This document shows positions 5,041-41,595 of a DNA stretch of 52,042 bases, in pieces. How positions within the stretch are numbered: the first letter of the stretch is position 1; every line of letters starts with the position of its first letter. Source of the DNA: Candidatus Taylorbacteria bacterium RIFCSPLOWO2_12_FULL_43_20 (lineage in GTDB: Bacteria > Patescibacteriota > Minisyncoccia > Phycocordibacterales > HO2-43-120); contig MHSK01000011.1 of the NCBI GenBank assembly GCA_001821295.1, forward strand, positions 1 through 52,042. Reading direction: 5' to 3'. Under the pieces are notes generated by a model. That model searched no databases and was not told the DNA's origin. It was given only the letters and a program-made list of their open reading frames with translations. The translations under genes were made by a program, and so were the position numbers.

Positions 5041-5168
5041 ATTACGAAACTCTTTTCTCGGCAGGGCTTTTGCGGAACACGGGTATTTTTTTGCTAAAAA
5101 ATCCCTATGCTCGCCCGTCAGCTTCCGCAATGTTCCGCAAAAGCCCTGCCTGCGACGAGTTTCGTAAT
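5041..5168 (+). repeat. Family A 128-nt palindromic element, copy A1
   Basis: Termini ATTACGAAACTC/GAGTTTCGTAAT and an internal perfect 20-bp stem GGCAGGGCTTTTGCGGAACA/TGTTCCGCAAAAGCCCTGCC. Near-identical to copies at 14269, 39561 and 41468. Confidence 0.95.
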
Positions 5169-5229
5169 TCAACGCTAGTAAGGACTAATTGCACTGTGGA
5201 TAAGATGACATGGCTAGAAAAAATTGTGG

Positions 5230-5238
5230 TGGTACAAT
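5230..5238 (+). promoter_or_regulatory. Extended -10 promoter (TGgTACAAT), possibly giving a leaderless mRNA for the giant surface protein
   Basis: TGGTACAAT ends 6 nt before the ATG at 5245. No Shine-Dalgarno and no clear -35 were seen. Confidence 0.3.
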
Positions 5239-5244
5239 TAACAC

Positions 5245-8200
5245 ATGCGTAATTTTAGGCGCATCGTCTTGGTGTTCATTTTAGCCGGCGCGTTTGCGGG
5301 GCTAGCGTCACTTTCGTTGCATTTGGACAAAAAATATAATAGTTTTTCACAAAAAAACCGTCATATGGCGGCTGTTTCTGGTTCGGGTTCGGGACTCATC
5401 GGTCATTGGGCATTTGATGATGCAAGCGGAACAAACGCTTCCGATTCTTCCGGCAACGGCAGGACGGCTTCTCTTCAGGGCGGAGCGGGATGGTCGACAG
5501 GCAAAATAGTAGGAGCTGTATCTTTGGACGGAACAAATGATTATGTTGATACCGGCTATTCAAATTCGCTCGGATCATTTACCGCGGCGGTTTGGTATAA
5601 GAGTACCAATACTCAAACTTCGGAAATCGCCAGAGCGGTAGCGGGAAACATGACATCTGGCGGGGGGTTCTGGCTTATACCCGAGTGGGCCAATCCTTCT
5701 CCCATCTTCGCATACGGATTCATAAGCACGTCCGCCGACAATGCGGCCTTGCTTTTTTCACAATCGGAAGGATTCAGGTCCGGCTGGCATCATTTGGCCA
5801 TCACATATGACGGTTCATCAGCAAAGATCTATCAGGACGGTTCATTGAGAGAAATCAGATCAGTGTCTCTCGGAAGCGTTCCGTCCGGCACTTCCATAAA
5901 GTTCGGCCAGCGAGGAGACGGCTTATATTATTTCAAAGGATTGTTGGATGACGCTCGCTTTTACAATCGCGCTCTTTCTGCGAGCGAGATAAGCGAATTA
6001 TATAATTATACTGGGGACGTTTCGGTAAATACGGTTGACCCGGACAATGATATTCCGATACAAACAAACTCTGTCATTCCTGCCGAATCGCCGGCTGGAG
6101 ATATTACCGACACTGTTATCACACCCGATGCCACCAAATATTCATTAAAGATAAATAAAACGGGAAACGGGACGGTAAACGGAAGCGGGGTCTCATGCAC
6201 GTTGAGTATTTGCAATACAACCCACAATGAAGGCACATCGCTTACACTCACCTCCTCGCCTTCCTCAGGATATTCTTTCAGCGGATGGAGTGGCGCATGC
6301 TCGGGTACGGGATCTTGTGGTTTGACTATGAATTCTGATAAGACGGTAAATGTTGTTTTTACAAAAAATCCGACGCCGGAAATAGTAATAGAGCAGGAAC
6401 CGGAAACACCACCTTCGCAAGTGGTTAATCCCGTAGTTCCGGTGGAAGTAGGCAGTCAGGAAGGAACCGAATGGTACGTCTCTCCTTCGGGAAGCGTTTC
6501 AGGAGAAGGTACCGCGAGCAAACCTTGGGACTTGAGAACAGCCCTTTGTGGAGGCAGACCTTTTTATCTCGTTGACGGTGTCTGTTCTTCAAATCATGTA
6601 GTCAAGGTCAAACCGGGAGATACGATCTGGCTTCGCGGCGGCAATTATACAGAAGGAGTATCAGGAGAATGGCAGAACAATTACAGCATTATCAGTACTC
6701 TAACCGGATCTTCGGGGAAATACATCACCGTAAGGCAGTATCCCGGCGAAAGGGCCGCTTTGAACATACGCACTTTGCTTGTTAAAGGATCATACGGGAT
6801 TTACAGGGATTTTGAAATTTCCGGTTCTGATCCGGATCACGTCTCGGCGTATGACGGCTCTCTGCCTAATGACGTTTTGGGCCACAGCGCCATTTCATCA
6901 AGCGGGCCTTACAATAAGTTTATCAATCTTGTTCTGCATGACGCGACCGGATTCGGAATAGGCATGAGTGCTTCATCGTACGGTTCGGAAGCATATGGAA
7001 ATATAGTCTATTACAACGGCTGGCAGGGAACCGACAGGGGCCACGGACATGGATTTTATGTGCAAAACACCGGAGCCGCGCAAATATTAGAGGACAATAT
7101 CGTTTTTGGAAATTATCAGAACGGAATTCAGATGAGAGGTGCCGGCAATTCTTCCCGATTCAACTTTATCGGCAATACGAGCTTCAATAACGGAATTTTG
7201 AGCAGAAACAGGGAAGGCAACAATATTACGGCCGCCGACGACACACAGAGGATAGACGTGATCGGAAACATGACTTACAACAGCTACTATGCGAGTGATA
7301 GGACCGGCACGGTCAAATTCGGCGCGACAACGCTCGATATGAGAAACAATTATTTTCCGGAATACACATGGATCGCCAATTCTCCGAGTTCGCTGACTTT
7401 CACCGATAATTTCTTGTCCGGACCGACCACGCTGGTGTATTTCCCGAGCACAATGGCAAATGCCAATTGGAACAGGAATACATATTATTCGGAACAGTTA
7501 AGGTATACGCCGTTCAACGGGTCTTATTTCGATCAATGGAAGTCTTCCACCGGCTATGATCAGAATTCGGTATATACGATCGGAAAGCCTACAGGTGTGA
7601 AAGTATTCGTAAAGCCCAACAAGTATGAACAAGGCAGAGCGAATATCACCGTTTACAATTGGGCGAAAAATTCATCCGTGGCCGTTAATGTCAGCTCAGT
7701 ATTGCCGATTGGGACAAGATACGAAGTCCGCAACGCCCAAGATTTCTACGGTTCTCCTGTTTTGAGCGGCACATACCAGGGCGGAAATTTAAATCTGCCG
7801 ATGTCGGGTCTTTCTTTGGCTCAGCCGAAAGTGTTCACTGGTCAAAATGTAGAATTAACCGGTCCGGAATTCAATGTTTTCGTTCTTTTGCCAGTGGGGT
7901 GGAGCGATCAGGTTCAAAATATTGTCGTAACTCCCGTATTATCTCCCAGCGGTGGAGAGTTCACGGGGACACAGGCAGTTTCAATCTCCAGCGCTACGGA
8001 TGGCGCTACTATTTACTATACATTAGACGGGAGTATACCCACGGAACAATCCGCAAGATATACGAGTCCCATAAATATCAGCCAATACTCGGTTATAAGG
8101 GCAAAGGCGTTCAAGAGCGGCATGACATCTAGTGGAACGGTGACTGCAATATTTACCAAATCAATTGGAGATACAAACAATTCAGCGCCGGTTGTAAATT

Positions 8201-10731: not shown

Positions 10732-10879
10732 GCTGTCACAATCTAACCGCAAAACTAATACAGAAAGACAACGATTGCATGCGGATCGGATTTATAACCG
10801 AGTCCTCAGGTTTTGCTTTTGTTGAATTTAACCGATTTCCTTGCTTTTTTAGCCATGTCATAGTAGCATGTCTCATATT

Positions 10880-11293
10880 ATGCCTACAATAAACCAACTG
10901 ATAAAAAATAAAAGGAGAAACACTTCCAGAAAAATTAAGGCAGTGGCATTGACGCGCGGTTTCAATGTGTTGAAAAATCGCCCGCGGTTTTATTACTCAC
11001 CTTTTAAGAGGGGAGTTTGCACGAAAGTCACGACAAAAACTCCGAAGAAACCAAACTCGGCAATCAGAAAAATCGCAAGAGTTCGCCTCACCAATGGCAT
11101 GGAGGTTACGGCTTACGTGCCTGGCATCGGCCATAGTTTGCAGGAGCACTCGGTTGTTCTACTGCGCGGAGGACGCGTGAAAGATGTCGGCTTGCGATAT
11201 ACGATAGTCAGGGGCGTTTTGGACGCTACAGGCGTAGAATCCAGAAAGAAAGGACGTAGCCAATACGGCGCGAAAAAACCAAAAAAGTCATAG
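10880..11293 (+). CDS. rpsL: 30S ribosomal protein S12
   Basis: [13 protein letters not shown] is the canonical S12 N-terminus and sets the start at 10880 rather than 10868. PKKPNSA(I/L)RK motif present. Confidence 0.95.
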
Positions 11294-11346
11294 TAATGTA
11301 TTGATGTTGCTCTACAAACGCGATATAGAATATTTTTGAATTAAAT

Positions 11347-11817
11347 ATGCGAAGAAAAATAAAAGAAAAAAGAACGATTACCCCCGATGAAACTTACGAT
11401 TCAATCAAAGTTTCCAAGCTGATAAATTACGTCATGGAGAGAGGGAAAAAAAACGCGTCGCGGCGAGTGGTGTATGACGCAATGGTCAGCGTTAAAGATA
11501 AAGCGAAGGTGGACAACCCTTTGGAAATTTTTGAAATGGCTCTGAAAAACACGGCTCCTAACATGGAGGTCAAGTCAAGAAGAGTCGGCGGGGCCAATTA
11601 TCAAGTACCGATTGAAGTTAGACCAGAGAGAAAACAAGCTTTATCAATTAAATGGATCATTGATGCCGCGAGAAATAAAAAAGGGAAGCCGATGTCGGAG
11701 AAGCTGGCGGATGAGATAATTTCAGCTTCAAAAAATGAGGGAGATGCCGTAAAGAAAAGGGAAAATGTTCATAAAATGGCGGAGGCAAATAAGGCGTTCG
11801 CTCATTTTAGCTGGTAG
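11347..11817 (+). CDS. rpsG: 30S ribosomal protein S7
   Basis: MEVKSRRVGGANYQVPIEVRPERK signature; follows rpsL. Confidence 0.95.
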   Translation: MRRKIKEKRTITPDETYDSIKVSKLINYVMERGKKNASRRVVYDAMVSVKDKAKVDNPLEIFEMALKNTAPNMEVKSRRVGGANYQVPIEVRPERKQALSIKWIIDAARNKKGKPMSEKLADEIISASKNEGDAVKKRENVHKMAEANKAFAHFSW

Positions 11818-11838
11818 TGTAAACAAGAATTAATATTA

Positions 11839-12093
11839 ATGACGAAAAATAAGAAAAAGACCACAGACAAAAAACTAGATGAGCTGGCTTTGTCAGTTGC
11901 GAAAGGTTTTGCCGAAGTTTCAGCGACGATGGCGACGAAAACTGAAATGCATGAATTAAAAGAGGAAGTTGGTAAGATTTCCGATAAAATTGATCGTGTA
12001 GAGTATCTAGTGAACGGACATGATCGAAGAATTGATGTTTTAGAAGACAAAGTCAGGAGAATTAGCGTAAAAATTGGCGGAATAGGTAGATAA
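11839..12093 (+). CDS. Hypothetical 84-aa coiled-coil protein inserted between rpsG and fusA
   Basis: Intact ORF filling the gap with 21-nt and 10-nt spacers. Lys-rich N-terminus, then heptad-like charged helix. No family recognised. Confidence 0.5.
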
Positions 12094-12103
12094 TTACTTC
12101 ATT

Positions 12104-14242
12104 ATGAACAGAGATTACCCATTGGAAAAGGTAAGGAATTTTGGAATTATCGCTCACATTGACGCGGGAAAGACCACGACTTCCGAGCGTATTTTGTTCT
12201 ATACGGGCATGAGCCATAAGATAGGAGAGGTTCATGAGGGTGAGGCGGTTACAGACTGGATGGAGCAGGAAAAAGAGAGGGGAATAACGATTACCGCGGC
12301 GGCTATTACTTGCTTTTGGAATCCCTCTTATATGGGCGCCGATACTTCAAAAAAGCACCGGTTCAATATTATTGATACCCCTGGGCATGTGGATTTTACC
12401 GTTGAGGTGGAGAGATCGCTAAAGGTGCTCGATGGCGGCGTTGTAGTTTTTGACGGAGTGGCGGGAGTTGAACCGCAGTCAGAAACCGTATGGAGACAGG
12501 CGGACAAATATCATGTTCCAAGAATTTGTTTTATAAATAAACTTGATAGAACGGGGGGGTCTTTTGAACGGTCTTATCAGTCTATTGTTGAACGATTGAA
12601 CAAAAACGCTGTTAGAATGCAGATACCCATAGGTGAAGAGGACGAATTTGACGCGGTAATAGATCTCCTTAAAATGAAAGCGTATTATTTTGAAGGAAAC
12701 ATGGGTATTGACATATCTGAGCGAGAAATACCCGATTCTCATTTGGAGCTTGCTAAAAAATACAGGGCGGAGCTTGTTGAAAAAGTAGTGGAGCATGATG
12801 ATGTTCTGATGGCTGATTATTTGGAAGGCAAAGAAATTTCATTGGAAGATTTGAAGAGAACAATAAGAAAAGCATGTTTGGAAGTAAAACTTATACCGGT
12901 TTTTACCGGATCGGCTTTAAAAAATAAAGGAGTCCAGCTCGTCCTTGACGCCGTCGTCGATTATTTGCCTTCTCCCGTTGACATTCCTCCGGTAAAAGGA
13001 ATTGATCCTGCGACCGGGGAAATAATTGAGAGAAAAGCATCCGACAGTGAGCCGTTCGCCGCGCTGGCGTTCAAGCTTCAGACCGATCCGTTTGTGGGGC
13101 AACTTACCTTTTTTAGGGTTTATTCAGGAAAAATTGAAGCGGGTTCATATATCTACAATTCAACAACAGGAGATAAAGAACGGCTGGGAAGAATCGTGCG
13201 CTTGCAAGCTGATAAACGTGAAGAGGTTAAGATCGTATTTGCGGGAGAAATCGCTGCTGCCGTGGGACTTAAGAATGCCAAGACTTCTCATACGCTTTGC
13301 GATGAAAACAAACCCATAATCTTGGATAAAATTGTATTTCCAGAGCCGGTCATCTCTCTTAGAATTGAGCCCAAGACTAAAGCGGACCAGGAAAAGATGG
13401 GTTTTGCTTTGAAACGTCTGTCTGATGAGGATCCTACATTCAGAGTAAAGTCAGACGAGGAAACGGGCGAGACTGTAATTATGGGCATGGGGGAACTGCA
13501 TTTGGAAATAATTGTAGACAGAATGAAAAGGGAATTTAGCGTTGAAGCGAATGTCGGTAAACCTCAAGTTGCATACAAAGAAACAATATTGGGAGAAGCA
13601 GAGGCGGAGAATAAGTACATAAAACAATCTGGAGGAAAAGGCCAGTATGGGCACGTAAAAATAAAACTGAAGCCGCTCGGCCCGATGCCTGAAAAATTAC
13701 CTAAGACAACGCATAGAGAAGAAGGGTTTGAATTCATTAATTCCATTAAAGGAGGAGTCATACCTCAGGAGTTTATTCCTGCCTGCGAGAAGGGCATAAA
13801 AGAATCAATGGATAGAGGAGTCGTGGCTGGGTATAAGATGACAGATATTTCTTGCGAACTTCTCTTCGGTTCGTACCATGACGTAGACTCTTCGGAAATC
13901 GCTTACAAAATTGCTTCATCCATGGCTTTTCAAGACGCGGCAAAAAGAGCTAAGCCGGTTATACTTGAACCGATAATGAAAGTTGAGGTGGTCACGCCGG
14001 AAAAATTTATGGGTGACGTCACGGGCAACCTTTCCTCAAAACGCGCTCAAATAGAAGGCATGGATGAGCGAGGCATGAATAAGGTAATCAAAGCCAAAGT
14101 ACCTCTGGCTGAGATGTTCGGATATGTGACATCATTGAGATCAATGACGGAAGGCAGAGCCAGCTCCACTATGGAGTTTGATCATTATGAACCGGTGCCT
14201 GCGCATGTTTCCGCTTCTATTATTGAAGAAAGAATAAGCTAG
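12104..14242 (+). CDS. fusA: Elongation factor G
   Basis: G1 motif [10 protein letters not shown]3 motif DTPGHVDF, 712 aa, in str operon context. Confidence 0.95.
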
Positions 14243-14268
14243 AGTTCCCGTATTTCTTTATCACTGCA

Positions 14269-14396
14269 ATTACGAAACTCTTTTCTCGGCAGGGCTTTTG
14301 CGGAACACGGGTATTTTTTTGCTAAAAAATCCCTATGCTCGCCCGTCGGCTTGCGCAATGTTCCGCAAAAGCCCTGCCTTCGACGAGTTTCGTAAT
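14269..14396 (+). repeat. Family A 128-nt palindromic element, copy A2
   Basis: Near-identical to A1 and A4; begins 26 nt after the fusA stop. Confidence 0.95.
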
Positions 14397-14480
14397 TTAC
14401 AATCGATTAGGGTATACACTGTCGGCCATTCCTCCTTTTCTAAATTCACGATATTTTATATTTATGTTATCCTCTTAATT

Positions 14481-15506: not shown

Positions 15507-15537
15507 CTGCCAACAGTCCACCTGTGGATATACTGTC

Positions 15538-15567
15538 TTGCATTTTTTCCTGCCTCGGCGGTATAAT
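15538..15567 (+). promoter_or_regulatory. Sigma70-like promoter TTGCAT-N18-TATAAT
   Basis: Read directly; lies upstream of the small ORF and the pilin gene. Confidence 0.4.
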
Positions 15568-15573
15568 TAAATA

Positions 15574-17434: not shown

Positions 17435-17623
17435 GTTATGTACCGTAATTCGGAGCTTTTTGTTTAATTCTAGTACCATAAACAATTCGGACTGTTATTG
17501 ACTCGATTGCTATACTATCAGGACTTATTTTTTGAAACCGGAGAAAATCAGGATATGCGAATCCAGACTCCGAAAATTCATGCTTAAGTTGTGGTGTGTG
17601 TCGCGTGTCAATGTTTGAACGTT

Positions 17624-17750
17624 TATAGAACTTACGCAGTCGGCGCATTTCTTTGTTGCAAGCTCCGTTTGCACCCGCAATGTATAAAACATACATTTTG
17701 GTCGCAATCCTCGCTTGCGCCTCAAACTGCATCAAAATGCGTAAGTCCAA
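17624..17750 (+). repeat. Family B ~125-nt TIR-bounded element, copy B1
   Basis: ACTTACGCAGTCGGCGCATTTCT...CTGCATC..ATGCGTAAGTCC; aligns along its whole length with the copies at 18984, 24344 and 38721. Confidence 0.9.
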
Positions 17751-17787
17751 GTTTAATAATTTTTTAATAATTTAATAATAAAAAATC

Positions 17788-18981
17788 ATGGCAGAAGCAT
17801 TTGATCGATCAAAACCGCATGTCAACGTCGGAACTATTGGCCACGTTGATCACGGCAAGACAACATTAACAGCGGCAATTCTCAGCGTTTTAAGTAGGTC
17901 GGGAAAGCAGGTTAAGCTGAAAGGAGTTGACCAGATAGACTCCGCGCCGGAAGAAAAAGCTCGAGGCATCACGATCTCTTTGTCGCACAACGAATACTCC
18001 AGTGACACAAGGCACTACGCTCACATTGACGCTCCGGGTCATGCCGACTATATAAAAAACATGATTACAGGCGCGGCTCAGATGGACGGAGCCGTTTTGG
18101 TGGTGGCGGCCACGGACGGGGTTATGCCGCAGACTCGCGAGCATATTCTTCTTGCCAAGCAGGTGGGAGTGCCTAAAATCGTGGTCTTTCTCAATAAATG
18201 TGATATGGTTGCCGAACAGGACTTGATAGACCTTGTGGAAGAAGAGGTTAGAGAATTGCTTGATAAGTATGAGTTTGACGGAAAAAACGCTCCGGTTATC
18301 AGGGGATCGGCTCTAAAGGCGCTTGAAGCGTCGGGAGTGGATGATGAATGGTCCAAAAAAGTTTTGGATCTCGTAAATACGCTGGACACCTACATTCCTA
18401 TACCGGTAAGAGAAACCGATAAGCCGTTTCTGATGCCTGTTGAAGATATATTTTCTATTGAAGGACGAGGAACGGTGGTAACGGGAAGAATTGAAAGAGG
18501 AATAGTCAAAGTGGGAGAAGATGTGGAAATAATAGGCATTAAACCGACGATCAAAACAACGGTTACCGGCATTGAAATGTTCAATAAATCTTTATCTGAG
18601 GGCATGGCGGGAGACAACGCCGGTATTCTTCTTAGAGGATCAAAGAAAGAAGATATTCACAGAGGACAAGTATTGGCAAAGCCGGGATCGGTTACTCCGC
18701 ACACGGATTTTGAAAGCGAGGTCTATGTTTTGAAAAAGGAAGAAGGGGGGAGGCATACACCGTTCTTTTCTGGTTACAAGCCGCAATTTTACATCAGGAC
18801 TACGGACGTTACCGGAGAAGTTACGCTGGTGGAAGGCACGGAAATGATTATGCCCGGAGATACGACAAAATTTACGGTTAAGCTGGTTGCGCCTGTAGCG
18901 CTTGAGGAGAAACAGAGATTTGCCATTCGCGAGGGTGGTAAAACAGTGGGCGCCGGAGTAGTGACGAAAATAACCAAATAG
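17788..18981 (+). CDS. tuf: Elongation factor Tu
   Basis: [39 protein letters not shown]; 397 aa. Confidence 0.97.
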
Positions 18982-18983
18982 AA

Positions 18984-19109
18984 TATGATTTACGCAGTCG
19001 GCGCATTTCTTCTATGCAAGCCCCGTTTGCTCCCGCAATGTATAAGCTACATTCTGGTCGCAATCCTCGCTTGCGCCTCGAACTGCATCCAACTGCGTAA
19101 GTCCTATAG
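18984..19109 (+). repeat. Family B element, copy B2
   Basis: Starts 2 nt after the tuf stop; ends ...AACTGCGTAAGTCCTATAG. Confidence 0.9.
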
Positions 19110-21312: not shown

Positions 21313-21322
21313 AATATCATGA

Positions 21323-21372
21323 ATTATAAACTCTTTTCTCGACGGGCAACCGTCTTTGATGAGTTTCGTAAT
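21323..21372 (+). repeat. Family A mini-derivative (termini only), copy A5
   Basis: ATTATAAACTC...GAGTTTCGTAAT flank a short GACGG-GCAA-CCGTC hairpin in place of the 100-nt core. Confidence 0.75.
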
Positions 21373-21428
21373 TTCAAGATAAAAAAAGAAGAGGGTTTAC
21401 TGAATTTACAATCAAATCAATCATATTT

Positions 21429-24321: not shown

Positions 24322-24343
24322 ACAAGTTTGCGTTATTGAGTAG

Positions 24344-24472
24344 TATATGACTTACGCAGTCGGCGCATTTCTTCGTTGCAAGCTCCGTTTGCTCCCGCAA
24401 TGTATAAGGATACATTTTGGTCGCAATCCTCGCTCGCGCCTCGAACTGCATCCAACTGCGTAAGCCCTATAG
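24344..24472 (+). repeat. Family B element, copy B3 (between rplP and rpmC)
   Basis: TATATGACTTACGCAGTCGGCGCATTTCTTCGTTGCAAGC...CAACTGCGTAAGCCCTATAG. Confidence 0.9.
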
Positions 24473-24495
24473 CATTAGGAATTACTTCCACAGCC

Positions 24496-25352: not shown

Positions 25353-25379
25353 GAAAAATAACACGACACCAATATACGA

Positions 25380-25420
25380 CTCCGACGCTTTGGTCGGAGC
25401 CCCGACCGAAGCGTCGGGGA
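25380..25420. repeat. Family D long hairpin (CCGACGCTTTGGTCGG-AGCC-CCGACCGAAGCGTCGG)
   Basis: Same hairpin as at 42836-42875 and 46782-46821. Lies between rplN and rplX. Confidence 0.9.
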
Positions 25421-25518
25421 TGAAGACGAATTACACTAATATATTGATGGATTTAAACAATCTACCCAATTCTTGTCATTCGTTTTAATTCGTAATCAGT
25501 GTCTAGGAAAAATCAAAC

Positions 25519-31016: not shown

Positions 31017-31043
31017 GATTTGAAACGGGTAGTGCTCAATGCA

Positions 31044-31811: not shown

Positions 31812-31875
31812 TGATGATATAATAATGATACACTCTTTAAGAGTATGTACGTAATTTATATAGTGATTAAATATA

Positions 31876-34233
31876 ATGACGGAAAAAATTATAAAAAATT
31901 TGGACGAGCTGGAGATGCCCGAAGCGTCACATTCTTCTAAAAAAGAAGAGACAGGCGGCGATCAGGAAAAAAATGGAATGCGTCAAGCTGATATGCGGAT
32001 AAAGCGCGCTCTAAAACGCTTAATGGCAAGCAAGACGCTTAATGATCTTTTGGGCAGTAGCGTAGATATAGAAAAGATAACGGAAGGACTTGAGACAAAA
32101 ATTGAGATTGCAAGAGCTCAAAATGACGATGAGTTCTCGGCTTCGTGCCAAAATACGTTAGACGCATTCAAAGGTTTTATTAGAACCTCACTTACTTCAA
32201 AGGAAAAGGACGACCCACTGGGAGACAAAGCGGACATTATTGGAAGAATTCTGGAGCCGGGCATTGGGCGTGGTTCTAAAAAAGAAGCTGCTAAAAAGGA
32301 AGAGCAAAATCCGAACACAATATCTGACGAGCAAGCAATGGACGTGATAAGAGCCGTGGCGCATGAGCATCCGAGTGTGTTATCAGTCGGCGATATTGTT
32401 TCCGGTGAAGAAAACGATAAAAAAACAGAAACACGCGCACGGGATGAAAAAAAAGCGGAAAATAGGAGAACTGTTGGTTTACACATAAAAAATCTTAAAG
32501 GATTTGCCGACACTCCCTCAAAGTCAAGGCAGGTAAAAGTGGATAAGTACATAAACATGACTTTATCAGACGCGACTAATAACGTTGATAAAAATCCAGA
32601 ATATTTAGATATGCTGGAAGAAGCATATATTAAAGCTGGATATTTGAAACGCGCAACAGGTGAGAAAGTTGGCCGAGAGGAGTCATCTACAGAGGCAAAG
32701 CAAAAAAATGAACAAACAAAAAAGGAAGAAAAACCCAGAGCTAAAAAAGCCGAGGGAACAGATGTTTCAGACGTGGAAACTGTGCGCGGTTTGTCTGTTG
32801 AGTCCGATATTGGTGGTGAAAATGTGGCGCGTGAAAGTGATTCAACAGAAAGAAAACAAGAAGCGCCCCGTTTAGGTATTCAATCCGATACCGACGGTGT
32901 TAGTGTGGGAGAAGCAGCCAAACCGGAAAATGAGCCGCGGGGAGAGGGGGATATTGGATCGAAAGTAGAGCCGGGTGTTCCCGAAGGGAGCCAGGCGTCA
33001 ATAGGACAAGCGCCTTCACCAATAGAAACAAATGCGGATGCGCCAAAAGCGCCGGAAGTGCCGAAAGAGCCGGAAACTGAAAAAGCCGAGGGCACAAACA
33101 TCGGAGAAACGCCCGCCATTAACTGGAGATTTAAAGAAATTAAAGACGTGCCGGAAGGCGACCTCACTGTAGCCGAAATGATGGACCATGGTGATTTTCC
33201 TCTGTTTCTTGCCCAGTATTCCAACGGAGAGCACCTCATAGATGCTGACGACGTAGAAGGTGTGAGGGAAATTTTTGACGCGTATGTCTACGGAGGAACA
33301 GTTGTTAACGGTCTGAAAAGGACGGTACAGCAGTATTACGAAAGATCAGCTGGAGTCAAGTTCAGCCCAGAGGAGCTTGCTGTCATTGATGAATACATAA
33401 TGGCTGAAGCCAGAGATAATCCGGGCAGAATAAAAGAACTGGGCCAAGAAGTTGTAATTTTTGAATCGTTGCAAAAAGAAAATAACGAGCTTGAGCAGGA
33501 AATAAGAAAAATGGGACGAAATGCTGTCACTGAACGGCTGAAATATGAAATCGCGGCGCTGAAAGCCGAACAGTATGATTTGCAACAATTAGAAAGCGGG
33601 GACGCGGCGAACTCAGGCATGTATCATATGAAAGAACTTTTTCTCTTTTGGAAAAAGGATACGCCGGGGAAGAGGAATAGGAGGCGGCTCAAGGAGCTTG
33701 AAGAAAAAATATCCGAAATGGAAGGCACTTTGGCCGGGCTGGAACAAATCAAGGATTCAAGGAAGTCTTTGTTGGAGATTATTGAGCCTCTTGGCAAACT
33801 AAACGAACTTGCGCAAGAAAAAGCAAAAGAACAGCTGGAGAGAATGATGGCCTCTGGTGATCCGGAAAAAACATATGCTTATTTTGAACGTGTGTCCGAT
33901 GCGGAAGAGGACGATGACATAGAGATGCTCCGCAAAATAGACAAGGATGAAGTGAGATCAGCGCTTGATGAAAAAATTGAGGCCAAGGTTGCCAGAGATA
34001 TCAAGAAAACACTTGATGGGTTTAGGTTTGGAGCGAAAATAGGCAATGTTGAAAATTTGAAGAAATCTTTGAGGAAGCATCTTGAAAGAAGCGGCATGGG
34101 ATCAAAAAAGGGAGTAGAAGCCCAGGAAAACGTGCGCCGCATTTTGCTTGAAGTCTCAAGAGAGCTGGGAGGTGGAGCGGAAGCTAAAGCGAAGATGATG
34201 ATGGTAACAGCCATTTTTAATGAATTAAAGTAG
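31876..34233 (+). CDS. Hypothetical 785-aa hyper-charged (E/K-rich) coiled-coil protein
   Basis: Intact long ORF with no TM and no signal peptide by eye. Internal repeat K(A/K)EGT(D/N). C-terminal half is predicted helical. No family recognised. Confidence 0.6.
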   Translation: MTEKIIKNLDELEMPEASHSSKKEETGGDQEKNGMRQADMRIKRALKRLMASKTLNDLLGSSVDIEKITEGLETKIEIARAQNDDEFSASCQNTLDAFKGFIRTSLTSKEKDDPLGDKADIIGRILEPGIGRGSKKEAAKKEEQNPNTISDEQAMDVIRAVAHEHPSVLSVGDIVSGEENDKKTETRARDEKKAENRRTVGLHIKNLKGFADTPSKSRQVKVDKYINMTLSDATNNVDKNPEYLDMLEEAYIKAGYLKRATGEKVGREESSTEAKQKNEQTKKEEKPRAKKAEGTDVSDVETVRGLSVESDIGGENVARESDSTERKQEAPRLGIQSDTDGVSVGEAAKPENEPRGEGDIGSKVEPGVPEGSQASIGQAPSPIETNADAPKAPEVPKEPETEKAEGTNIGETPAINWRFKEIKDVPEGDLTVAEMMDHGDFPLFLAQYSNGEHLIDADDVEGVREIFDAYVYGGTVVNGLKRTVQQYYERSAGVKFSPEELAVIDEYIMAEARDNPGRIKELGQEVVIFESLQKENNELEQEIRKMGRNAVTERLKYEIAALKAEQYDLQQLESGDAANSGMYHMKELFLFWKKDTPGKRNRRRLKELEEKISEMEGTLAGLEQIKDSRKSLLEIIEPLGKLNELAQEKAKEQLERMMASGDPEKTYAYFERVSDAEEDDDIEMLRKIDKDEVRSALDEKIEAKVARDIKKTLDGFRFGAKIGNVENLKKSLRKHLERSGMGSKKGVEAQENVRRILLEVSRELGGGAEAKAKMMMVTAIFNELK

Positions 34234-34251
34234 GAGCTCTAACTAACACAT

Positions 34252-34488
34252 ATGAAAGACATCAACGCAAAAAAAATAGAAAAGCTTTTAAAAGAAGAGA
34301 GATATGATGAAGCGCGGTCGCTCCTTGCCGATTTTTTCAGTCAGGAGCTCACGAAGGAAGACCGCGCTTCGTTATATCTTGATTATGCTCTGCTTCACCT
34401 CAAGGTTATGAATCGCATAGCCGCGCGTTATAATAAGCAACTTAAAACCATAAGAAAAAATCTTTCCGAGCTTCCAGAAAATGCTTAG
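34252..34488 (+). CDS. Hypothetical 78-aa helical protein
   Basis: ORF starting 18 nt after the preceding gene. No recognised family. Confidence 0.45.
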   Translation: MKDINAKKIEKLLKEERYDEARSLLADFFSQELTKEDRASLYLDYALLHLKVMNRIAARYNKQLKTIRKNLSELPENA

Positions 34489-34502
34489 GGCTGTTCACAA
34501 TC

Positions 34503-34646
34503 GTAACCGCTCACACCTTGAAGGGTGTCATTCCCGCGAAGGCGGGAATCTAGACCGCATTTGAACCTGGATTCCCGTCTTCGCGGGAATGACAGAAGGA
34601 GAAAAATGTTACAATTAGCGGGTTACTCGGCCTTGTGAGCGGTTAA
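34503..34646. repeat. Composite nested palindrome containing two family C hairpins
   Basis: Outer arms GTAACCGCTCACA / TGTGAGCGGTTAA enclose GTCATTCCCGCGAAGGCGGGAAT (34527-34549) and ATTCCCGTCTTCGCGGGAATGAC (34571-34593). Confidence 0.85.
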
Positions 34647-34715
34647 ATTGTTTTTTATTGATAATATATTGCGGTTAGAGTGTAAACTGACTCCAGTGAG
34701 TTTTGAAGATAAATT

Positions 34716-37475
34716 ATGAACGAGACCGGATTTTCAAAGATAGACAATAAATTTAGCTCTCCTGAAGAAGAGTTGGATTTTTTGCGCGCGGAAGTTTCCA
34801 GGAAAGAATCGGAGTTAAATCGGCAAAGCGAGACACCGAGCCGCGACAAGATAATAGCCGAAAGTCTGGACAGGTACAAAAAAACCGATGCCAAGGACAT
34901 TCTTCATGAGTCCTACGCGATGGGAAGCGAGGATAAAAACGAGCTCAGAAAAAAGCTGGATCTTTCCCCCGAACCCCACGATGATAAAATTAGCGAATTC
35001 GCGTCAATCTTAGAAGCTCACGGAATAAAAAACGCCCTTTCCGCCTTGGAAGAGCTGGACAATCCTCATCTCATGGATGATTTTGACAGGTTTCTGGTCC
35101 AATATGTCAAGCAGGATTTTGAAGTCAAAGGCGTGTCAAAAAAAGATCTTTTCAGCCGCGCTCTCCAGATGACCCTGTACGAGATAGCGTTGCCTGAAAA
35201 AACCAGCGAAGAACACCCGAAGACTTTGAAAGAACTGGTTTCGTCAATGGAGCAGTTTTATGCCGGCATGATGGCTGTGGGAGAAAAAAGCGATAAAGGA
35301 CCGAGCTATTTCACGCTGGAGCTCGCTGTGGAAAATCATAGCGATGAATTCATATTTTATTCAGCTGTTCCGGATTCAAGGAGAGATCTTTTTGAAAAGC
35401 AGATAATGTCAATTTTTCCAGACGCAAGAGTGACGGAAAAGAAAGATGACTATAATATTTTTGACGCGGAGGGAGTTGCCGTCGGTTCATACGCCGTGTC
35501 GGGCAACAACCCGATTTTTAGTTTGAAAACGTACGAACAATTTGATTACGATCCTCTCAATGTTCTTTTGAACAGCTTTTCCAAAATAGACAAAGACGGG
35601 GAAGGAGCCGCGGTGCAAATTGTCTTCAAACCGGTCGGAGATATGTACATGGAAAAATACAAGTACGCTCTGGAACAAATACAGAAAGGCGTAAAAGTCA
35701 AAGATGCGATAGATATTCCGGAGAGTCTGGCCGGTCACCTGTTTAAGTTCGCTAAGGAGGTGGCGGGCGATATGAAGAAGGATAAGGAAAAAGAAACGGA
35801 TATCAAGGATAAGCACGTGGATGAGATAGCGGTTGAGGATATAACTCAGAAAATTTCGAGCCCTGTTGCCGTCGCCAACATACGAATAATGGCTTCTTCA
35901 GCCAACGAAGCATCGGCGCTGGCTATTCTGGAGGATGTCCACGCCGCTTTCAATCAGTTTGAAAATAGCCACGGCAATAAGCTAATCTTTAAAACTTTAA
36001 AAAAATCAAAACTGAGGAGACTGGCAAAGGAGTTTTCTTTCCGCTTGTACTCTTCGGACGAGAAAATACCTTTGAGCTTGAAAGAAATTACGACGATCAT
36101 GCATCTCCCCTCCACTGTAATCAAGTCTGCTCCTCAGCTCAAGATTTCAAAGGCGTCTACCGCGCCGGCACCAATGGATCTTAAAGAAGAGGGCATACTC
36201 ATGGGAGTCAACAGAAACCGTAACTCCGAAAGGAAAATTTACATGGCCGAGGAAGACCGTCTGCGGCATTTCTATACCATCGGACAAACCGGAACCGGCA
36301 AGACAACATTGTTGAAAAATATGATCGCTCAGGACATAGCCAACGGAGAAGGCGTGTGCATGATAGATCCTCACGGGTCAGACATAGACGATGTGCTTGC
36401 TTCCGTGCCTCCGGAGAGATATGACGACGTGGTATATTTTGACCCGAGTTACACGGCTCGGCCGACCGCTTTAAATATGCTTGAGTATGATACGCGTTTT
36501 CCGGAACAGAAAACCTTCGTCGTGAATGAAATGCTTTCTATATTCAATAAATTGTTTGATATGAAAACAGCCGGCGGGCCGATGTTTGAACAATATTTCA
36601 GAAACGCGGTGCTTTTGGTAATGGAGGATCCGACAACCGGAAACACGCTTCTTGATGTGTCAAAAGTGCTGGCTGACAAAAAATTCAGAGAGATGAAGCT
36701 GGAGAGGTCGTCAAACCCGATTGTTTCGCAATTTTGGAAAGAGGTGGCGGAAAAAGCTGGGGGTGAATCCGCCTTGGCGAATATTGTGCCTTACATCACC
36801 TCAAAATTTGACGTGTTTTTATCCAACGATATTATGCGTCCTATCATCGCAAGCGAGAAATCCAGCTTCAATTTCAGGGAAATAATGGACAATAAAAAAA
36901 TATTGCTGGTAAATCTCGCAAAAGGCCGGCTTGGTGAAATCAACTCAAATCTTCTAGGTCTCATACTTGTGGGAAAAATCCTGATGTCCGCTTTGTCGCG
37001 CGTTGATTCTTTCGGCAAAAATTTGCCTCCTTTTTATTTGTATATTGACGAGTTTCAAAATGTAACAACAAGCTCCATATCTACAATATTATCCGAGGCG
37101 AGGAAATACAAACTGGCGCTGGTTATTGCTCATCAGTTTATCGCTCAGCTAGAAGATAATATAAAGGATTCGGTTTTCGGAAACGTCGGTTCCATAGCTT
37201 CATTCAGAGTCGGAGCAGAAGACGCCGAATACTTGGAAAAACAATTTGCTCCGGTTTTCGCGGCCAAGGATCTTATGAACATAGATAATAGGTCTTTTTA
37301 CCTGAAAATGCTTTCAGGGGGCAAAACAGTCAAGCCGTTTAACGTGGAAACCATCGCGCCGGCTTATGGAGAAAGAAATAGCGTGGAAAAAATGAAAGAA
37401 TTGTCCTACCTGCGATACGGGAGGGATCGGGAAAGAGTGGAAGCGGAAATCATGAGCAAGTATAATAAGTCGTGA
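34716..37475 (+). CDS. Soluble FtsK/HerA-superfamily ATPase, VirD4/TraD (type IV coupling protein)-like C-terminal half with a ~480-aa N-terminal domain of unknown function
   Basis: Walker A GQTGTGKTT (~nt 36290), DPHGS shortly after it, Walker B FYLYIDEFQN (~nt 37030), AHQ motif LVIAHQFIAQL. No TM helices seen in the N-terminus. Confidence 0.75.
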   Translation: MNETGFSKIDNKFSSPEEELDFLRAEVSRKESELNRQSETPSRDKIIAESLDRYKKTDAKDILHESYAMGSEDKNELRKKLDLSPEPHDDKISEFASILEAHGIKNALSALEELDNPHLMDDFDRFLVQYVKQDFEVKGVSKKDLFSRALQMTLYEIALPEKTSEEHPKTLKELVSSMEQFYAGMMAVGEKSDKGPSYFTLELAVENHSDEFIFYSAVPDSRRDLFEKQIMSIFPDARVTEKKDDYNIFDAEGVAVGSYAVSGNNPIFSLKTYEQFDYDPLNVLLNSFSKIDKDGEGAAVQIVFKPVGDMYMEKYKYALEQIQKGVKVKDAIDIPESLAGHLFKFAKEVAGDMKKDKEKETDIKDKHVDEIAVEDITQKISSPVAVANIRIMASSANEASALAILEDVHAAFNQFENSHGNKLIFKTLKKSKLRRLAKEFSFRLYSSDEKIPLSLKEITTIMHLPSTVIKSAPQLKISKASTAPAPMDLKEEGILMGVNRNRNSERKIYMAEEDRLRHFYTIGQTGTGKTTLLKNMIAQDIANGEGVCMIDPHGSDIDDVLASVPPERYDDVVYFDPSYTARPTALNMLEYDTRFPEQKTFVVNEMLSIFNKLFDMKTAGGPMFEQYFRNAVLLVMEDPTTGNTLLDVSKVLADKKFREMKLERSSNPIVSQFWKEVAEKAGGESALANIVPYITSKFDVFLSNDIMRPIIASEKSSFNFREIMDNKKILLVNLAKGRLGEINSNLLGLILVGKILMSALSRVDSFGKNLPPFYLYIDEFQNVTTSSISTILSEARKYKLALVIAHQFIAQLEDNIKDSVFGNVGSIASFRVGAEDAEYLEKQFAPVFAAKDLMNIDNRSFYLKMLSGGKTVKPFNVETIAPAYGERNSVEKMKELSYLRYGRDRERVEAEIMSKYNKS

Positions 37476-37582
37476 TCCTTTTTTTTGCTTGCTCTGGAGC
37501 AGTGTCGCGGTATATAATTAATGACCAAACGTAATTATCAATATCTTCTCAAAGCATTGCTTTGGGCCGTTAATATATAAAC

Positions 37583-37771
37583 ATGCCTGAAAAATTAAAA
37601 ATTGAATGGTCTGGAGATGAGGAACAGCCGCGAATGGAGGAAACTAGACGGTGGATCGGCAAAATGGCTGACGAAAACAAGAGAGAAATTAATGAAAAAG
37701 GATACGCTAGATATATAAAACTTATGCCGGAACTGGATGAGGCGCTGGAAGAGTCGCTTAAGCAAAATTAA
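37583..37771 (+). CDS. Hypothetical 62-aa acidic protein
   Basis: ORF only; highly charged. Confidence 0.35.
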   Translation: MPEKLKIEWSGDEEQPRMEETRRWIGKMADENKREINEKGYARYIKLMPELDEALEESLKQN

Positions 37772-37775
37772 ATAT

Positions 37776-38069
37776 ATGGACCATCCTTTAAAACAAAAAA
37801 TCGCTCCGCGGCTTAATCTCAACGGTTTTAGCGATACGGAAAAAGAAGAGATAATTACGATGTTGGAGAATATAGCCAAGGAAAAAATTTTCATAGCCAT
37901 TTTGGACGAACTTTCGCATGACGAAAAATCAGAGCTGGAGAAAATGAGCGAAGGGGAATACGCAGATAAGCTCAGCGCCTTTCTCGCTCCGCATTTTGAC
38001 AAATTCAGGTCTATCATAGATAAAAGGACTGAAGAGGTTGTGGGAGAATTTAACGCTTTAAGAGTGTAA
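37776..38069 (+). CDS. Hypothetical 97-aa acidic helical protein
   Basis: Starts at the ATG at 37776 (MDHPLKQ...). The pattern EEIITMLENIAKEKIFIAILDELSHDEKSELEKM recalls small helical proteins common in CPR genomes; this is from memory and not verified. Confidence 0.45.
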   Translation: MDHPLKQKIAPRLNLNGFSDTEKEEIITMLENIAKEKIFIAILDELSHDEKSELEKMSEGEYADKLSAFLAPHFDKFRSIIDKRTEEVVGEFNALRV

Positions 38070-38112
38070 GTGTTAAAGATATTATAAATATTGATATAAC
38101 TATTCATAATAA

Positions 38113-38718
38113 ATGACACATCTTAAAAAAGAGAGGACGCTAGTGGTTATCAAGCCGGACGGTATTCAAAGGACGCTTGTGGGTGAGATTATACAGCGCT
38201 ATGAACGGATTGGACTGAAACTTATCGCCATTAAGATGCTCGTACCCTCCGAGGATCATGTGGACAAGCATTACAATCTTGACCCTGAGTGGAAGAAAAA
38301 TGTGGGTGAGAAATCAATCAAAGGGTATATAGACAAAGGTCTTGAGCCGCCCTCACAAGATCCAATGGTTATAGGGGATCAAGTTATAAGTGTTCTGAAA
38401 AAATATCTTAGCTCCGGACCGGTCATAGCGATGGTGTGGCAAGGCGCTCACGCGGTTAAAATTGTGAGGAAAATTACGGGAGGTACGGAGCCGCTTTCAT
38501 CGGATGTCGGCACGATTCGGGGGGACTATGTTTTAGATTCTTATCAAATGTCCGATAAGGACGGCAGGGCAATACGCAATCTGATCCATGCCTCAGGATC
38601 TGCAAAAGAAGCAGACGATGAGATCAAGCATTGGTTTGTTGAAGAAGAATTGCTAGATTACAATCTGGTGCAAGACAAAATCCTTTACGATGTAAATCTA
38701 GACGGATTGTTGGAATAG
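38113..38718 (+). CDS. ndk: Nucleoside diphosphate kinase, long form (201 aa)
   Basis: ERTLVVIKPDGIQRTLVGEIIQRYERIGLKLIAIKM, GTIRGDY, and NLIHAS holding the active-site His. A ~40-aa insertion relative to the ~145-aa classical form. Confidence 0.9.
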   Translation: MTHLKKERTLVVIKPDGIQRTLVGEIIQRYERIGLKLIAIKMLVPSEDHVDKHYNLDPEWKKNVGEKSIKGYIDKGLEPPSQDPMVIGDQVISVLKKYLSSGPVIAMVWQGAHAVKIVRKITGGTEPLSSDVGTIRGDYVLDSYQMSDKDGRAIRNLIHASGSAKEADDEIKHWFVEEELLDYNLVQDKILYDVNLDGLLE

Positions 38719-38720
38719 TT

Positions 38721-38847
38721 TAGGAATTACGCAGTCGGCGCATTTCTTCTCTGCAAGCTCCGTTTGCTCCCGCAATGTATAAGGATACATTTTGGTCGCA
38801 ATCCTCGCTTGCGCCTCGAACTGCATCCGACTGCGTAAGTCCTATAG
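38721..38847 (+). repeat. Family B element, copy B4
   Basis: Starts 2 nt after the ndk stop; ends ...GACTGCGTAAGTCCTATAG. Confidence 0.9.
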
Positions 38848-38853
38848 CTGTAT

Positions 38854-38881
38854 TTGCGTTAGAAATATCATAGGATATAAT
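38854..38881 (+). promoter_or_regulatory. Sigma70-like promoter TTGCGT-N16-TATAAT
   Basis: Read directly. The predicted start at ~38888 coincides with the 5' arm of the closing helix of the candidate RNA. Confidence 0.5.
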
Positions 38882-38887
38882 TATTAC

Positions 38888-39063
38888 AGGTTATTTGGAG
38901 TATTATCTAGATTAAAGCATATTCAGGAAGCCCGAATTGTTACGTTGTGAGGAGGGTCCTTGCGACCATCCGATCGATGTGTCTGTGGGCATCCACCTAG
39001 TTTTTGACTAGGGCAATACTACCGAATAACCTATCAAAAAACTCTTCTTAGGAAGGGTTTTTT
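38888..39063 (+). ncRNA. Candidate ~175-nt structured small RNA of unassigned class
   Basis: 5' AGGTTATTTGGAGTATTATCTAG (38888-38910) pairs with CTAGGGCAATACTACCGAATAACCT (39008-39032) as a long imperfect closing helix. Internal hairpins include GGAGGGTC-CTTGC-GACCATCC. Ends in terminator CTCTTC-TTAG-GAAGGG plus T6 (39042-39063). No ORF present. Confidence 0.5.
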
Positions 39064-39122
39064 GTTGAAAATTTTTTTTCTTTCCTGTGGATTATGCTGT
39101 CAGGTTCTGTTATCATTTGTTA

Positions 39123-39539
39123 ATGAGAGAACGTTTTTTAAAGCAATTGGTGGCGGTGATATTTGCCATAGCGGTTTTACATATAGCGGCTATCGGCTTT
39201 CATTTCTACTGGTCAATTTGGTGGTACGATATATTACTGCATTTTTTTGGCGGCGTTTGGATAGGGATTTTCTCTCTCTGGTTTGTTTTTTACAGTCGGT
39301 ACATAAAAATAAAAGAGTTGGAAAAAGCGGGAGCTTTGGGAATATCTGCCATTGCCGTTATGTTCGCGTTTGGCGTGGGTATGATATGGGAGCTGTATGA
39401 ATTCATGCTTTCTGCCAACTTCAGCCGGGAGGGCTATGCCATGGATACTCTCATCGATCTCATTATGGATGTTTCCGGCGCACTGGTCGGTTATGTAATT
39501 TTCACATTGCAAAGGGAAAGATATATACACGGGCGATGA
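39123..39539 (+). CDS. Hypothetical integral membrane protein (~4 TM)
   Basis: Hydrophobic helices with W/H-rich motifs (HFYWSIWWYDILLHFFGG; DTLIDLIMDVSGALVG). Alternative GTG start at 39087. Confidence 0.6.
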   Translation: MRERFLKQLVAVIFAIAVLHIAAIGFHFYWSIWWYDILLHFFGGVWIGIFSLWFVFYSRYIKIKELEKAGALGISAIAVMFAFGVGMIWELYEFMLSANFSREGYAMDTLIDLIMDVSGALVGYVIFTLQRERYIHGR

Positions 39540-39560
39540 CACCGTTACTTATGACATTGG

Positions 39561-39688
39561 ATTACTAAACTCGTCGAAGGCAGGGCTTTTGCGGAACATT
39601 GCGCAAGCCGACGGGCGAGCATAGGGATTTTTTAGCAAAAAAATACCCGTGTTCCGCAAAAGCCCTGCCGAGAAAAGAGTTTCGTAAT
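39561..39688 (-). repeat. Family A 128-nt element, copy A3 (inverted orientation)
   Basis: Reverse complement of A1/A2/A4 with a few substitutions. Confidence 0.95.
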
Positions 39689-39715
39689 CCACAATTATGA
39701 ATTAAACAAGATATT

Positions 39716-41095
39716 ATGATGCCGTCATTAACTTTTTGGGGAGGGGTGGGAAGCGTTACCGGAGCCAATTTCTTATTTCAATGTGATAAGAAAAACATTT
39801 TAGTGGATTGCGGACTTATTCAGGGAGGGGATTATGCCGAGCAGGAAAATGAAAAACCCTTTTCTTACGACCCATCACTGGTGGATGTTCTGTTCGTAAC
39901 TCACGCCCATATAGATCATATAGGACGCGTTCCCAAGCTTGTAAAAGAAGGTTTCAGGGGGGTTATTTATTCCACGCTTGAAACCAGAGAGTTGGCGAAA
40001 GTGATGCTCGCGGACGCGTTTCGCATATTGCGCGCGGAAGCTCTAAAAAAAGGCAAGAAAACTTTTTATGACGAAAGTGATATAAACGACGCGTTTGGTC
40101 TTTGGCGCGACATACCATATCATACCGACGAATCTATATCGGATAATATTAAATTTAAATTATTGGACGCGGGACACATTCTCGGCTCATCGATGGTGGA
40201 GATAACCTTTCGCCATGTTCGTGAAAACGGCTGGAAAAAAATAGTATTCTGCGGGGATTTGGGCAACTCTCCTTCATTACTGCTTCGCGAGACCGAAAAG
40301 GTGACAGGAGCGAATTATATGGTCATGGACAGCGTTTATGGAGATAGAAACCACGAGCCGCCGGAAGAGAGAAAAACACGGCTAATAGATATCATCAATG
40401 ACACTGTGGAAAGGGGAGGAGCTTTGATTATCCCGGCTTTTTCTCTTGAGAGAACGCAAGATATCTTGTATGAGATCAATAATATGGTGGAGGGAGGGCA
40501 AATCAAATCTATTCCTGTTTTTTTGGATTCGCCCTTGGCTATTAAGGTGACGGAAATTTATAAAAAATCCATAGCCAATTTCAATGGTAAGGTTAACAAT
40601 GAGATAAAAGCGGGAGATGATATTTTTGACTTTCCCAAGCTTAAATTTACCATGAGGAGGGACGATTCAGTGGCGATAGACGACGTGCCCAATCCGAAAA
40701 TCGTTATCGCCGGCTCAGGGATGTCAGCCGGCGGAAGAGTGATTTATCATGAACAAAGACACTTAAGTGATCCCAAGAGCACTATTTTATTGGTGGGATA
40801 TCAAGTGGCCGGCAGTTTCGGTAGAAAAATATTGGAGGGGGAAAAGAAGGTTCTGATCAATGGAAAAGAGATTGATGTTAGGGCCAAGATTGTATCAATC
40901 AATGGCTATTCCGCTCATATGGATTCTGACCATCTTTTGGAATTTGTCGGCGAAGCTGCGGAATCGCTGGAAAAAGTTTTTGTCGTTATGGGAGAACCGA
41001 AGTCTTCGCTTTTCCTCGCTCAGCGCATCAGAGATTACATAGGAGTCAATGCCATTTTTCCGGAGCGTGGTAAACCGTATATTTTAAATTACTGA
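39716..41095 (+). CDS. MBL-fold beta-CASP family RNA-processing nuclease (CPSF73/COG1236-like)
   Basis: HxHxDH motif VTHAHIDHIG. Length (459 aa) and the C-terminal GYSAH...MGEP region are typical of beta-CASP proteins. Confidence 0.8.
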   Translation: MMPSLTFWGGVGSVTGANFLFQCDKKNILVDCGLIQGGDYAEQENEKPFSYDPSLVDVLFVTHAHIDHIGRVPKLVKEGFRGVIYSTLETRELAKVMLADAFRILRAEALKKGKKTFYDESDINDAFGLWRDIPYHTDESISDNIKFKLLDAGHILGSSMVEITFRHVRENGWKKIVFCGDLGNSPSLLLRETEKVTGANYMVMDSVYGDRNHEPPEERKTRLIDIINDTVERGGALIIPAFSLERTQDILYEINNMVEGGQIKSIPVFLDSPLAIKVTEIYKKSIANFNGKVNNEIKAGDDIFDFPKLKFTMRRDDSVAIDDVPNPKIVIAGSGMSAGGRVIYHEQRHLSDPKSTILLVGYQVAGSFGRKILEGEKKVLINGKEIDVRAKIVSINGYSAHMDSDHLLEFVGEAAESLEKVFVVMGEPKSSLFLAQRIRDYIGVNAIFPERGKPYILNY

Positions 41096-41105
41096 CTCTC
41101 AAAGT

Positions 41106-41453
41106 TTACTGATTCACTTTTTTATATATTCTGGAGAAATATTCCGGTTGATCTTCGGCGAGGGATGCCAATATTTTGCGGTCAATAAGAACGTTCTTCT
41201 TTTTGAGCGCGCCCATAAACTTACTGTAAGACATGCCTTCTTTGGCCAAAGCGGCGCTAATCTTAACATTCCACAATCTTCTGAAGTCACCTTTTTTGTC
41301 TCGTCTATGAGCAAAGGCGTAAGTGCCGGCGTGAAAAATGGCTTCTTGGGCTTGTTTCTCCTTTTTACTTCTGCCGAAGCGGTAACCTTTTACCTTCCTC
41401 AGTGTATTTCTTCTGGTTTTGAGAGCGTTAACTCCTTTCTTTACTCTTGTCAT
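41106..41453 (-). CDS. rplT: 50S ribosomal protein L20
   Basis: MTRVKKGVNALKTRRNTLRKVKGYRFGRSK...FRRLWNVKISAA signature. Confidence 0.95.
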   Translation of the reverse strand: MTRVKKGVNALKTRRNTLRKVKGYRFGRSKKEKQAQEAIFHAGTYAFAHRRDKKGDFRRLWNVKISAALAKEGMSYSKFMGALKKKNVLIDRKILASLAEDQPEYFSRIYKKVNQ

Positions 41454-41467
41454 ATTTATTACTTTGA

Positions 41468-41595
41468 ATTACGAAACTCTTTTCTCGGCAGGGCTTTTGC
41501 GGAACACGGGTATTTTTTTGCTAAAAAATCCCTATGCTCGCCCGTCGGCTTGCGCAATGTTCCGCAAAAGCCCTGCCTTCGACGAGTTTCGTAAT
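41468..41595 (+). repeat. Family A 128-nt element, copy A4 (between rpmI and rplT)
   Basis: Appears identical to A2 by eye. Confidence 0.95.

Follow-up and report, generated by a model that had tools for sequence, protein, structure and literature searches.

A probable miniature inverted-repeat transposable element in the short gene spacers of a Candidatus Taylorbacteria population

Here we describe Family A, a palindromic repeat found in a 52,042-nt stretch of a Candidatus Taylorbacteria genome (contig MHSK01000011.1, positions 1–52,042; the whole of this stretch is called the window). We conclude that Family A is very probably a miniature inverted-repeat transposable element (MITE), i.e., a non-autonomous, non-coding DNA transposon of ~140 nt. 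Because it has terminal inverted repeats and 6–7 bp target duplications, is present in at least 18 copies, and is absent from the orthologous junctions of relatives, we class it as a MITE, for which we infer chemistry of the cut-or-copy DDE type, rather than as a repetitive extragenic palindromic (REP) element. An earlier prediction, made from the letters of the window alone, had offered a MITE/REP-like non-autonomous mobile element as one of its readings, and the terminal repeats, duplications, and dispersed copies support this reading and sharpen it to a MITE. Family A also fits the published definition of a MITE, under which such an element is <500 bp long, ends in terminal inverted repeats, has direct repeats at its young copies, occupies AT-rich targets between genes, and gives transcripts that form stable hairpins (PMC10969869).

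The window contains four full copies of Family A, which are near-identical over a 128-nt core when aligned with each other, and one internal-deletion derivative. Copy 1 (core 5041–5168; 5035..5174 including the tips described below; + strand) lies between the stop of metG (3592–5034), which is 6 nt from the core, and the gene for a 1828-aa surface protein. Copy 2 (core 14269–14396; 14263..14402 including tips; + strand) lies 26 nt past the stop of fusA (12104–14242), and copy 3 is inverted (core 39561–39688; 39555..39694 including tips; − strand) at the junction between a DUF2238 gene and a beta-CASP RNase gene. Copy 4 (core 41468–41595; 41462..41601 including tips; + strand) occupies the junction of rpmI (41668–41853, − strand) and rplT (41106–41453, − strand), and since both genes are on the − strand while the copy is on the + strand, copy 4 is antisense to that operon. 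The derivative (21317..21378, with a 50-nt core at 21323–21372; + strand) is at the rplW/rplB junction and retains the termini plus a 5-bp remnant of the stem. The 12-nt termini, ATTACGAAACTC/GAGTTTCGTAAT, are exact at all ends with the sole exception of one mismatch in the copy at 39561, and the 20-mer that forms one arm of the perfect inner stem, GGCAGGGCTTTTGCGGAACA, is matched eight times in the window, twice per copy, compared with 0.01 matches expected by chance. The open frames in the element are only 44–46 codons long and run through the palindrome, and a peptide search with the element's open frame gave a single, uninformative 31-aa match. Thus, the coordinates of all five copies, the termini (bar the one mismatch) and 20-bp stem, and the positions relative to metG, fusA, rpmI/rplT, and rplW/rplB were correct in the original prediction, the latter as judged by gene calls.

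The true ends of the element and its target-site duplications were read from all sites, in the window and in metagenome contigs, aligned in one orientation. Conservation goes 6 nt past each 12-nt terminus (consensus YYNTGA at the left end, TCANRR at the right end), and the terminal inverted repeats therefore consist of 12 perfect nucleotides and a 6-nt imperfect tip, ~18 bp in total (YYNTGA + ATTACGAAACTC). The predicted 128-nt repeat is real, but it was drawn 6 nt too short on each side. Directly outside the tips, most copies have an AT-rich direct repeat of 6–7 bp. In a fixed-offset test, the two flanks are identical at ≥6 of 7 positions at 14 of 22 sites, compared with 26 of 462 (5.6%) mismatched pairs of left and right flanks, and so the target-site duplications that the original prediction proposed to look for are present; examples are TACTATA, TATTATA, TAGGATA, TAAACAT, TAAATTA, and TAAAACA. 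In the window, copy 3 is flanked by TTATGA (39549–39554 and 39695–39700) and copy 4 by TTATTA (41456–41461 and 41602–41607). Copy 1, with the tips TTATGT/TCAACG, has an imperfect duplication, AAAGTAA at 5028–5034, which takes in the metG TAA stop, and CTAGTAA at 5175–5181. The derivative has flanking repeats ATAAAAT/ATAAAAA, the left one of which overlaps the rplW stop, and copy 2 has atypical tips, ACTGCA/TTACAA, with no target duplication that could be recognized.

Outside the window, an exact scan of metagenomes with the stem-arm 20-mer returned 24 loci, all from the same aquifer, that collapse to at least 14 further sites, and the window and metagenome loci together contain at least 18 full dispersed copies with unique flanks. 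The Rifle aquifer metagenomes and bins yielded contigs that share the fusA and rplT of the window; these contigs are 99.8–100% identical to the window, with the copies internal. Among named organisms, the nearest relatives by fusA and L20 belong to the Patescibacteria, for the most part to Candidatus Taylorbacteria or Paceibacteria. An exact 20-mer search of species-representative genomes gave only three single matches in unrelated taxa, apparently by chance, and no relatives at that stringency, and a plasmid collection gave no match to Family A. Terminus-pair scans of viral contigs returned nothing and then one match, which we rejected as a family member because it is a TACGAAAA-rich low-complexity region. 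Along with the full copies there are decayed or truncated relics, solo ends, deletion derivatives of 34 nt and 50 nt, and three older half-copies of 83–89% identity. In one metagenome contig (L011:1782–2098), a Family A copy is split at its center by an unrelated element of 189 nt whose terminal inverted repeats are GAGCATGTTCnCAATCTAA, so that a further small element is nested within Family A.

At the same junctions in relatives, the element is missing. In a Taylorbacteria contig with conserved synteny (L049), the rpmI–rplT spacer is 75 nt, compared with 214 nt in the window, and the spacer between the DUF2238 and beta-CASP genes is 72 nt, compared with 176 nt in the window; neither contains Family A. 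In contig L048, too, the 63 nt upstream of rplT are free of the element, but we rejected this contig as an empty site because a diverged lineage is the source of its first 162 nt.

All Family A copies are intergenic. Between co-directional gene pairs, four to five copies are forward and six to seven are reverse with respect to transcription, and a further four copies lie between divergent genes. The original prediction placed the element at cistron boundaries of translation operons, but this does not hold for the copy at 39561, between the DUF2238 and beta-CASP RNase genes. Outside the window the neighbors are varied housekeeping genes, and since these copies adjoin yebC/ruvB, recO/ileS, infB, and a flavodoxin-like gene, the link to translation operons comes from the particular set of genes in the window. 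Without the element, its tips, and one of the two duplicated repeats, the spacers come to 11–67 nt, their length before insertion. Because most spacers are this short and lie between co-directional genes, most copies are almost certainly co-transcribed inside operon mRNAs, where each would form a long hairpin.

This last point bears on a second reading put forward in the original prediction, that Family A is a domesticated RNA module in which selection keeps the hairpin to punctuate polycistronic mRNAs, as an element for RNase III processing or for stability. Either strand of the element folds as one long hairpin of −61 to −72 kcal/mol (z ~ −10 compared with shuffles) that includes the perfect 20-bp duplex, and many copies are in very short spacers between co-directional genes and hence in mRNA. 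In addition, the Correia elements of Neisseria are cut by RNase III (PMC10969869, PMC2649163). Only 6 of 98 paired columns are variable, compared with 9 of 35 unpaired ones; however, this does not demonstrate selection, because the bait demanded that one arm of the stem be perfect and the copies are of very recent origin. In the 16-copy alignment, 97.4% of cells pair, which is no better than shuffles; the alignment has too little variation, and the covariation that the original prediction suggested looking for is essentially absent, since substitutions in the terminal repeat or the 20-bp stem affect one side only and are uncompensated. Orientation is mixed, with some copies between divergent genes, the relatives manage without the element at the same junctions, and the target duplications show that the copies arrived by transposition. 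In Rfam, only transfer-messenger RNA (tmRNA) passes the gathering threshold in the window and Family A matches no family, while a permissive scan of the element gives only generic miRNA-precursor hairpins at ≤30 bits, far below thresholds of 53–95. The proposal of a co-opted punctuation module thus found no positive support, and we consider it unlikely. The original prediction also proposed a bidirectional intrinsic terminator or insulator between cistrons, as might be imagined for a strong GC-containing hairpin that follows stop codons. A consensus scan in and beside the copies found no terminator-like site, i.e., no stem followed by a T-run or U-tract, and no sigma-70-like promoter. Some copies stand immediately ahead of essential genes, such as rplT or, in another case, rplB followed by the remainder of the S10 operon, and leave no space for a new promoter in between. 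This makes a terminator role unlikely, and overall we give it only a very slim chance.

It is similarly hard to credit that a RAYT (Y1) transposase spread Family A as an element of the REP/REPIN type. REP/REPIN-RAYT systems are built on a palindrome of 20–40 nt that makes no target duplication and is tied to a Y1 transposase. Family A shares with them a palindromic, intergenic repeat, and a related Taylorbacteria contig (L047:18948–19679) does carry a Y1 (IS200/RAYT-type) transposase gene between inverted ACAAAGGTTCGACCTTTGT palindromes, but REPs have neither target duplications nor long terminal inverted repeats, Family A has both, and the sampled loci of the window genome yielded no Y1 transposase. 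The repeat could instead have been created by assembly, and several short-read contigs do break inside or beside copies (L005, L006, L021, L024). Such breaks, however, are the expected outcome of a real multi-copy repeat, and rather than being confined to contig ends, the copies are internal, with unique flanks, in contigs from many independent NCBI, ENA, and JGI assemblies of different samples. An assembly or contig-end artifact therefore has next to no probability.

From these comparisons, we favor a MITE whose history would be as follows. A transposase, probably of the DDE type, would recognize the ~18-bp imperfect terminal inverted repeats and mobilize the element in trans. Integration would take place at AT-rich targets, often starting with TA, by a staggered cut whose repair leaves the 6–7 bp direct duplication. 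The element would recently have multiplied within a single population of Patescibacteria (from the Paceibacteria, near Candidatus Taylorbacteria), and the surviving copies would be those in places where a compact genome tolerates insertion, which are short gene spacers, including those within ribosomal-protein operons. Once in an operon mRNA, the hairpin may incidentally affect mRNA processing or stability, and by analogy with the Correia elements an effect through RNase III is plausible.

Several observations weigh against the MITE reading. The main gap is that neither a transposase nor an autonomous element with matching ends, RAYT/IS200-like or other, was found in the window and ~250 kb of the same genome. 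An open reading frame (ORF) screen found no multi-copy ORFs, Pfam scans of 40 ORFs found no transposase, and the only long-range inverted repeats that a screen returned were MITE pairs and palindromes flanking housekeeping genes. The tips are also far more variable than the core, with mean pairwise identities of 61% for the 6-nt tips and 96.6% for the core (16 copies), which is unusual for transposon ends, and 3 of 17 full copies have no recognizable target duplication. Furthermore, although the orthologous junctions in relatives lack the element, these relatives are too diverged to provide base-exact empty sites. Strain-level empty sites were sought within the population, and no presence/absence polymorphism was seen: all contigs with the same fusA or rplT are 99.8–100% identical, and every contig covering the window copies carries them. 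The solo ends in contigs L011 and L012 have transporter or membrane genes as neighbors rather than transposase remnants. The ends of Family A, YYNTGAATTACG, do not fit the IS982 consensus 5′-AC(N)6T(N)5TT (PMC7335449), which speaks against a MITE derived from IS982.

Family A is not the only small element with ends of this kind. Small elements of other kinds occur in relatives with termini that are almost the same, TGAATTACGAAA...TTTCGTAATTCA (L044:7987–8083, L044:11400–11452, and L046:20322–20420); these are also in gene junctions, and some have flanking repeats. The terminus-pair pattern has 16 matches compared with 0.44 expected, where the expectation covers the window and four relative loci and the matches also include the population loci L013–L033. 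Family B is MITE-like, ~136 nt long, and present in the window at 17619–17753, 18977–19109, 24338–24473, and 38713–38848 and in a relative at L044:444–561. Its termini, CTATAGGAyTTACGCAGTCGG, resemble those of Family A. One Family B copy occupies the tuf–rpsJ spacer, which is 6 nt long in a relative from the Hainich aquifer; the Family B ends are conserved in a Hainich-aquifer relative and the core is not. Family C is a 28-nt palindrome, TGTCATTCCCGCnnnnGCGGGAATGACA (window 700–727, 34526–34594, 41953–42025, 49090–49117, and 51086–51113; L022:2366–2490), often found as inverted doublets with the appearance of REPINs, one of which occupies the infC–rpmI spacer. One copy with Family B ends has Family C palindromes as its core, and the presence of Family C copies within B-type termini suggests modular MITEs. 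The picture is of a MITE superfamily in which Families A, B, and C share a TTACG-containing terminus and differ in their hairpin cores. A broader proposal is that this superfamily is moved by a transposase family undescribed in Patescibacteria and that its hairpin cores are retained as RNase III processing or stability punctuation in polycistronic mRNAs of a genome with minimal regulatory capacity; we regard this as doubtful.

Elements of the same general kind are known from other bacteria. Correia elements make a TA dinucleotide target duplication and have a 26-bp Correia repeat. Like Family A, the Correia elements (CREE/NEMIS, Neisseria) are hairpin MITEs (~100–155 bp) with terminal inverted repeats that are abundant in intergenic spacers and co-transcribed, but the duplication is TA rather than 6–7 bp, the termini and host phylum differ, and Correia elements carry promoter-like and IHF sites while Family A has no promoter consensus. 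RNase III cleavage of the Correia hairpin is documented (PMC10969869, PMC2649163), and this is the same mechanism that the original prediction proposed. ERIC/IRU (~127 bp, Enterobacteria) and RUP (107 bp, Streptococcus pneumoniae) are like Family A in size, imperfect palindromic structure, and variable orientation; they are found in transcribed intergenic regions and 3′ untranslated regions (UTRs), with reported effects on mRNA stability (PMC10969869). They differ from Family A in host and, by plasmid and Rfam searches, share no sequence similarity with it, and Family A has clear 6–7 bp duplications and very young copies. QMITE2 of Coxiella burnetii and Chunjie of Geobacter, like Family A, occur as full-length, size-variant, and partial copies, mostly in 3′ UTRs or intergenic regions (PMC10969869). 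Their sequences, hosts, and parent insertion sequences differ from those of Family A, for which no parent is known. The Rickettsia palindromic elements are likewise palindromic repeats in a small genome, but they often lie within protein genes, inserted in frame, whereas all Family A copies are intergenic. The Rickettsia elements are not known to have clear target duplications.

Genomes of the Candidate Phyla Radiation (CPR)/Patescibacteria usually have the reputation of being small and streamlined, with little mobile DNA. No account of MITEs in CPR/Patescibacteria turned up in literature searches, and Family A is an element of a known type that appears to be undescribed in this lineage. It leaves the understanding of how MITEs work unchanged. 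What it adds is that several MITE families can be packed in spacers of tens of bases, including within the S10 and infC–rpmI–rplT operons, and that streamlined CPR genomes can undergo recent transposon bursts. Such repeats also explain breaks or wrong joins of contigs in metagenome-assembled genomes of this lineage. Finally, the copies are natural hairpin insertions whose effect on operon mRNAs could be read from existing aquifer metatranscriptomes.

Some further observations concern the window and related contigs. Other assemblies (L016, L038, with its junction at window ~39550, and L055) join different flanks across repeat copies, and contig L048 has a diverged 5′ end (L048:1–162) fused to window-identical sequence; these alternative joins are either assembly chimeras at repeats or real recombination. 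Another group of repeats, Family D, consists of GC-rich hairpins, and inverted repeats of ~290 nt bracket a 3.9-kb segment that contains a YkuD-type peptidase gene, a 149-aa ORF, tmRNA, and smpB; between them, the hairpins and inverted repeats account for window 25365–25431, 42658–42896, and 46761–47043. The bracketed segment might be invertible or a recombination hotspot. The tmRNA (45789–46198, − strand) has a long, unusual predicted tag, VNNLVAKAKSVASPYFGANDFAFAYASA, and adjoins smpB (46181–46642). A small ORF without a Pfam match lies between rpsG and fusA at 11839–12093 (84 aa), with a counterpart position in a relative at L046:8606–8914 (102 aa). Directly downstream of the ribosomal protein cluster, window 31876–37475 contains a 785-aa ORF without a Pfam match and then a 919-aa homolog of TrwB/TraG-like coupling proteins. 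Just past the right end of the window is a tRNA gene (window ~51765–52042 and beyond; L056:1–360), followed by repeated fragments of the tRNA end, GCTACGCGCGC... All contigs that extend the right end stop within ~230 nt, which suggests an integration hotspot or a repeat at this tRNA.

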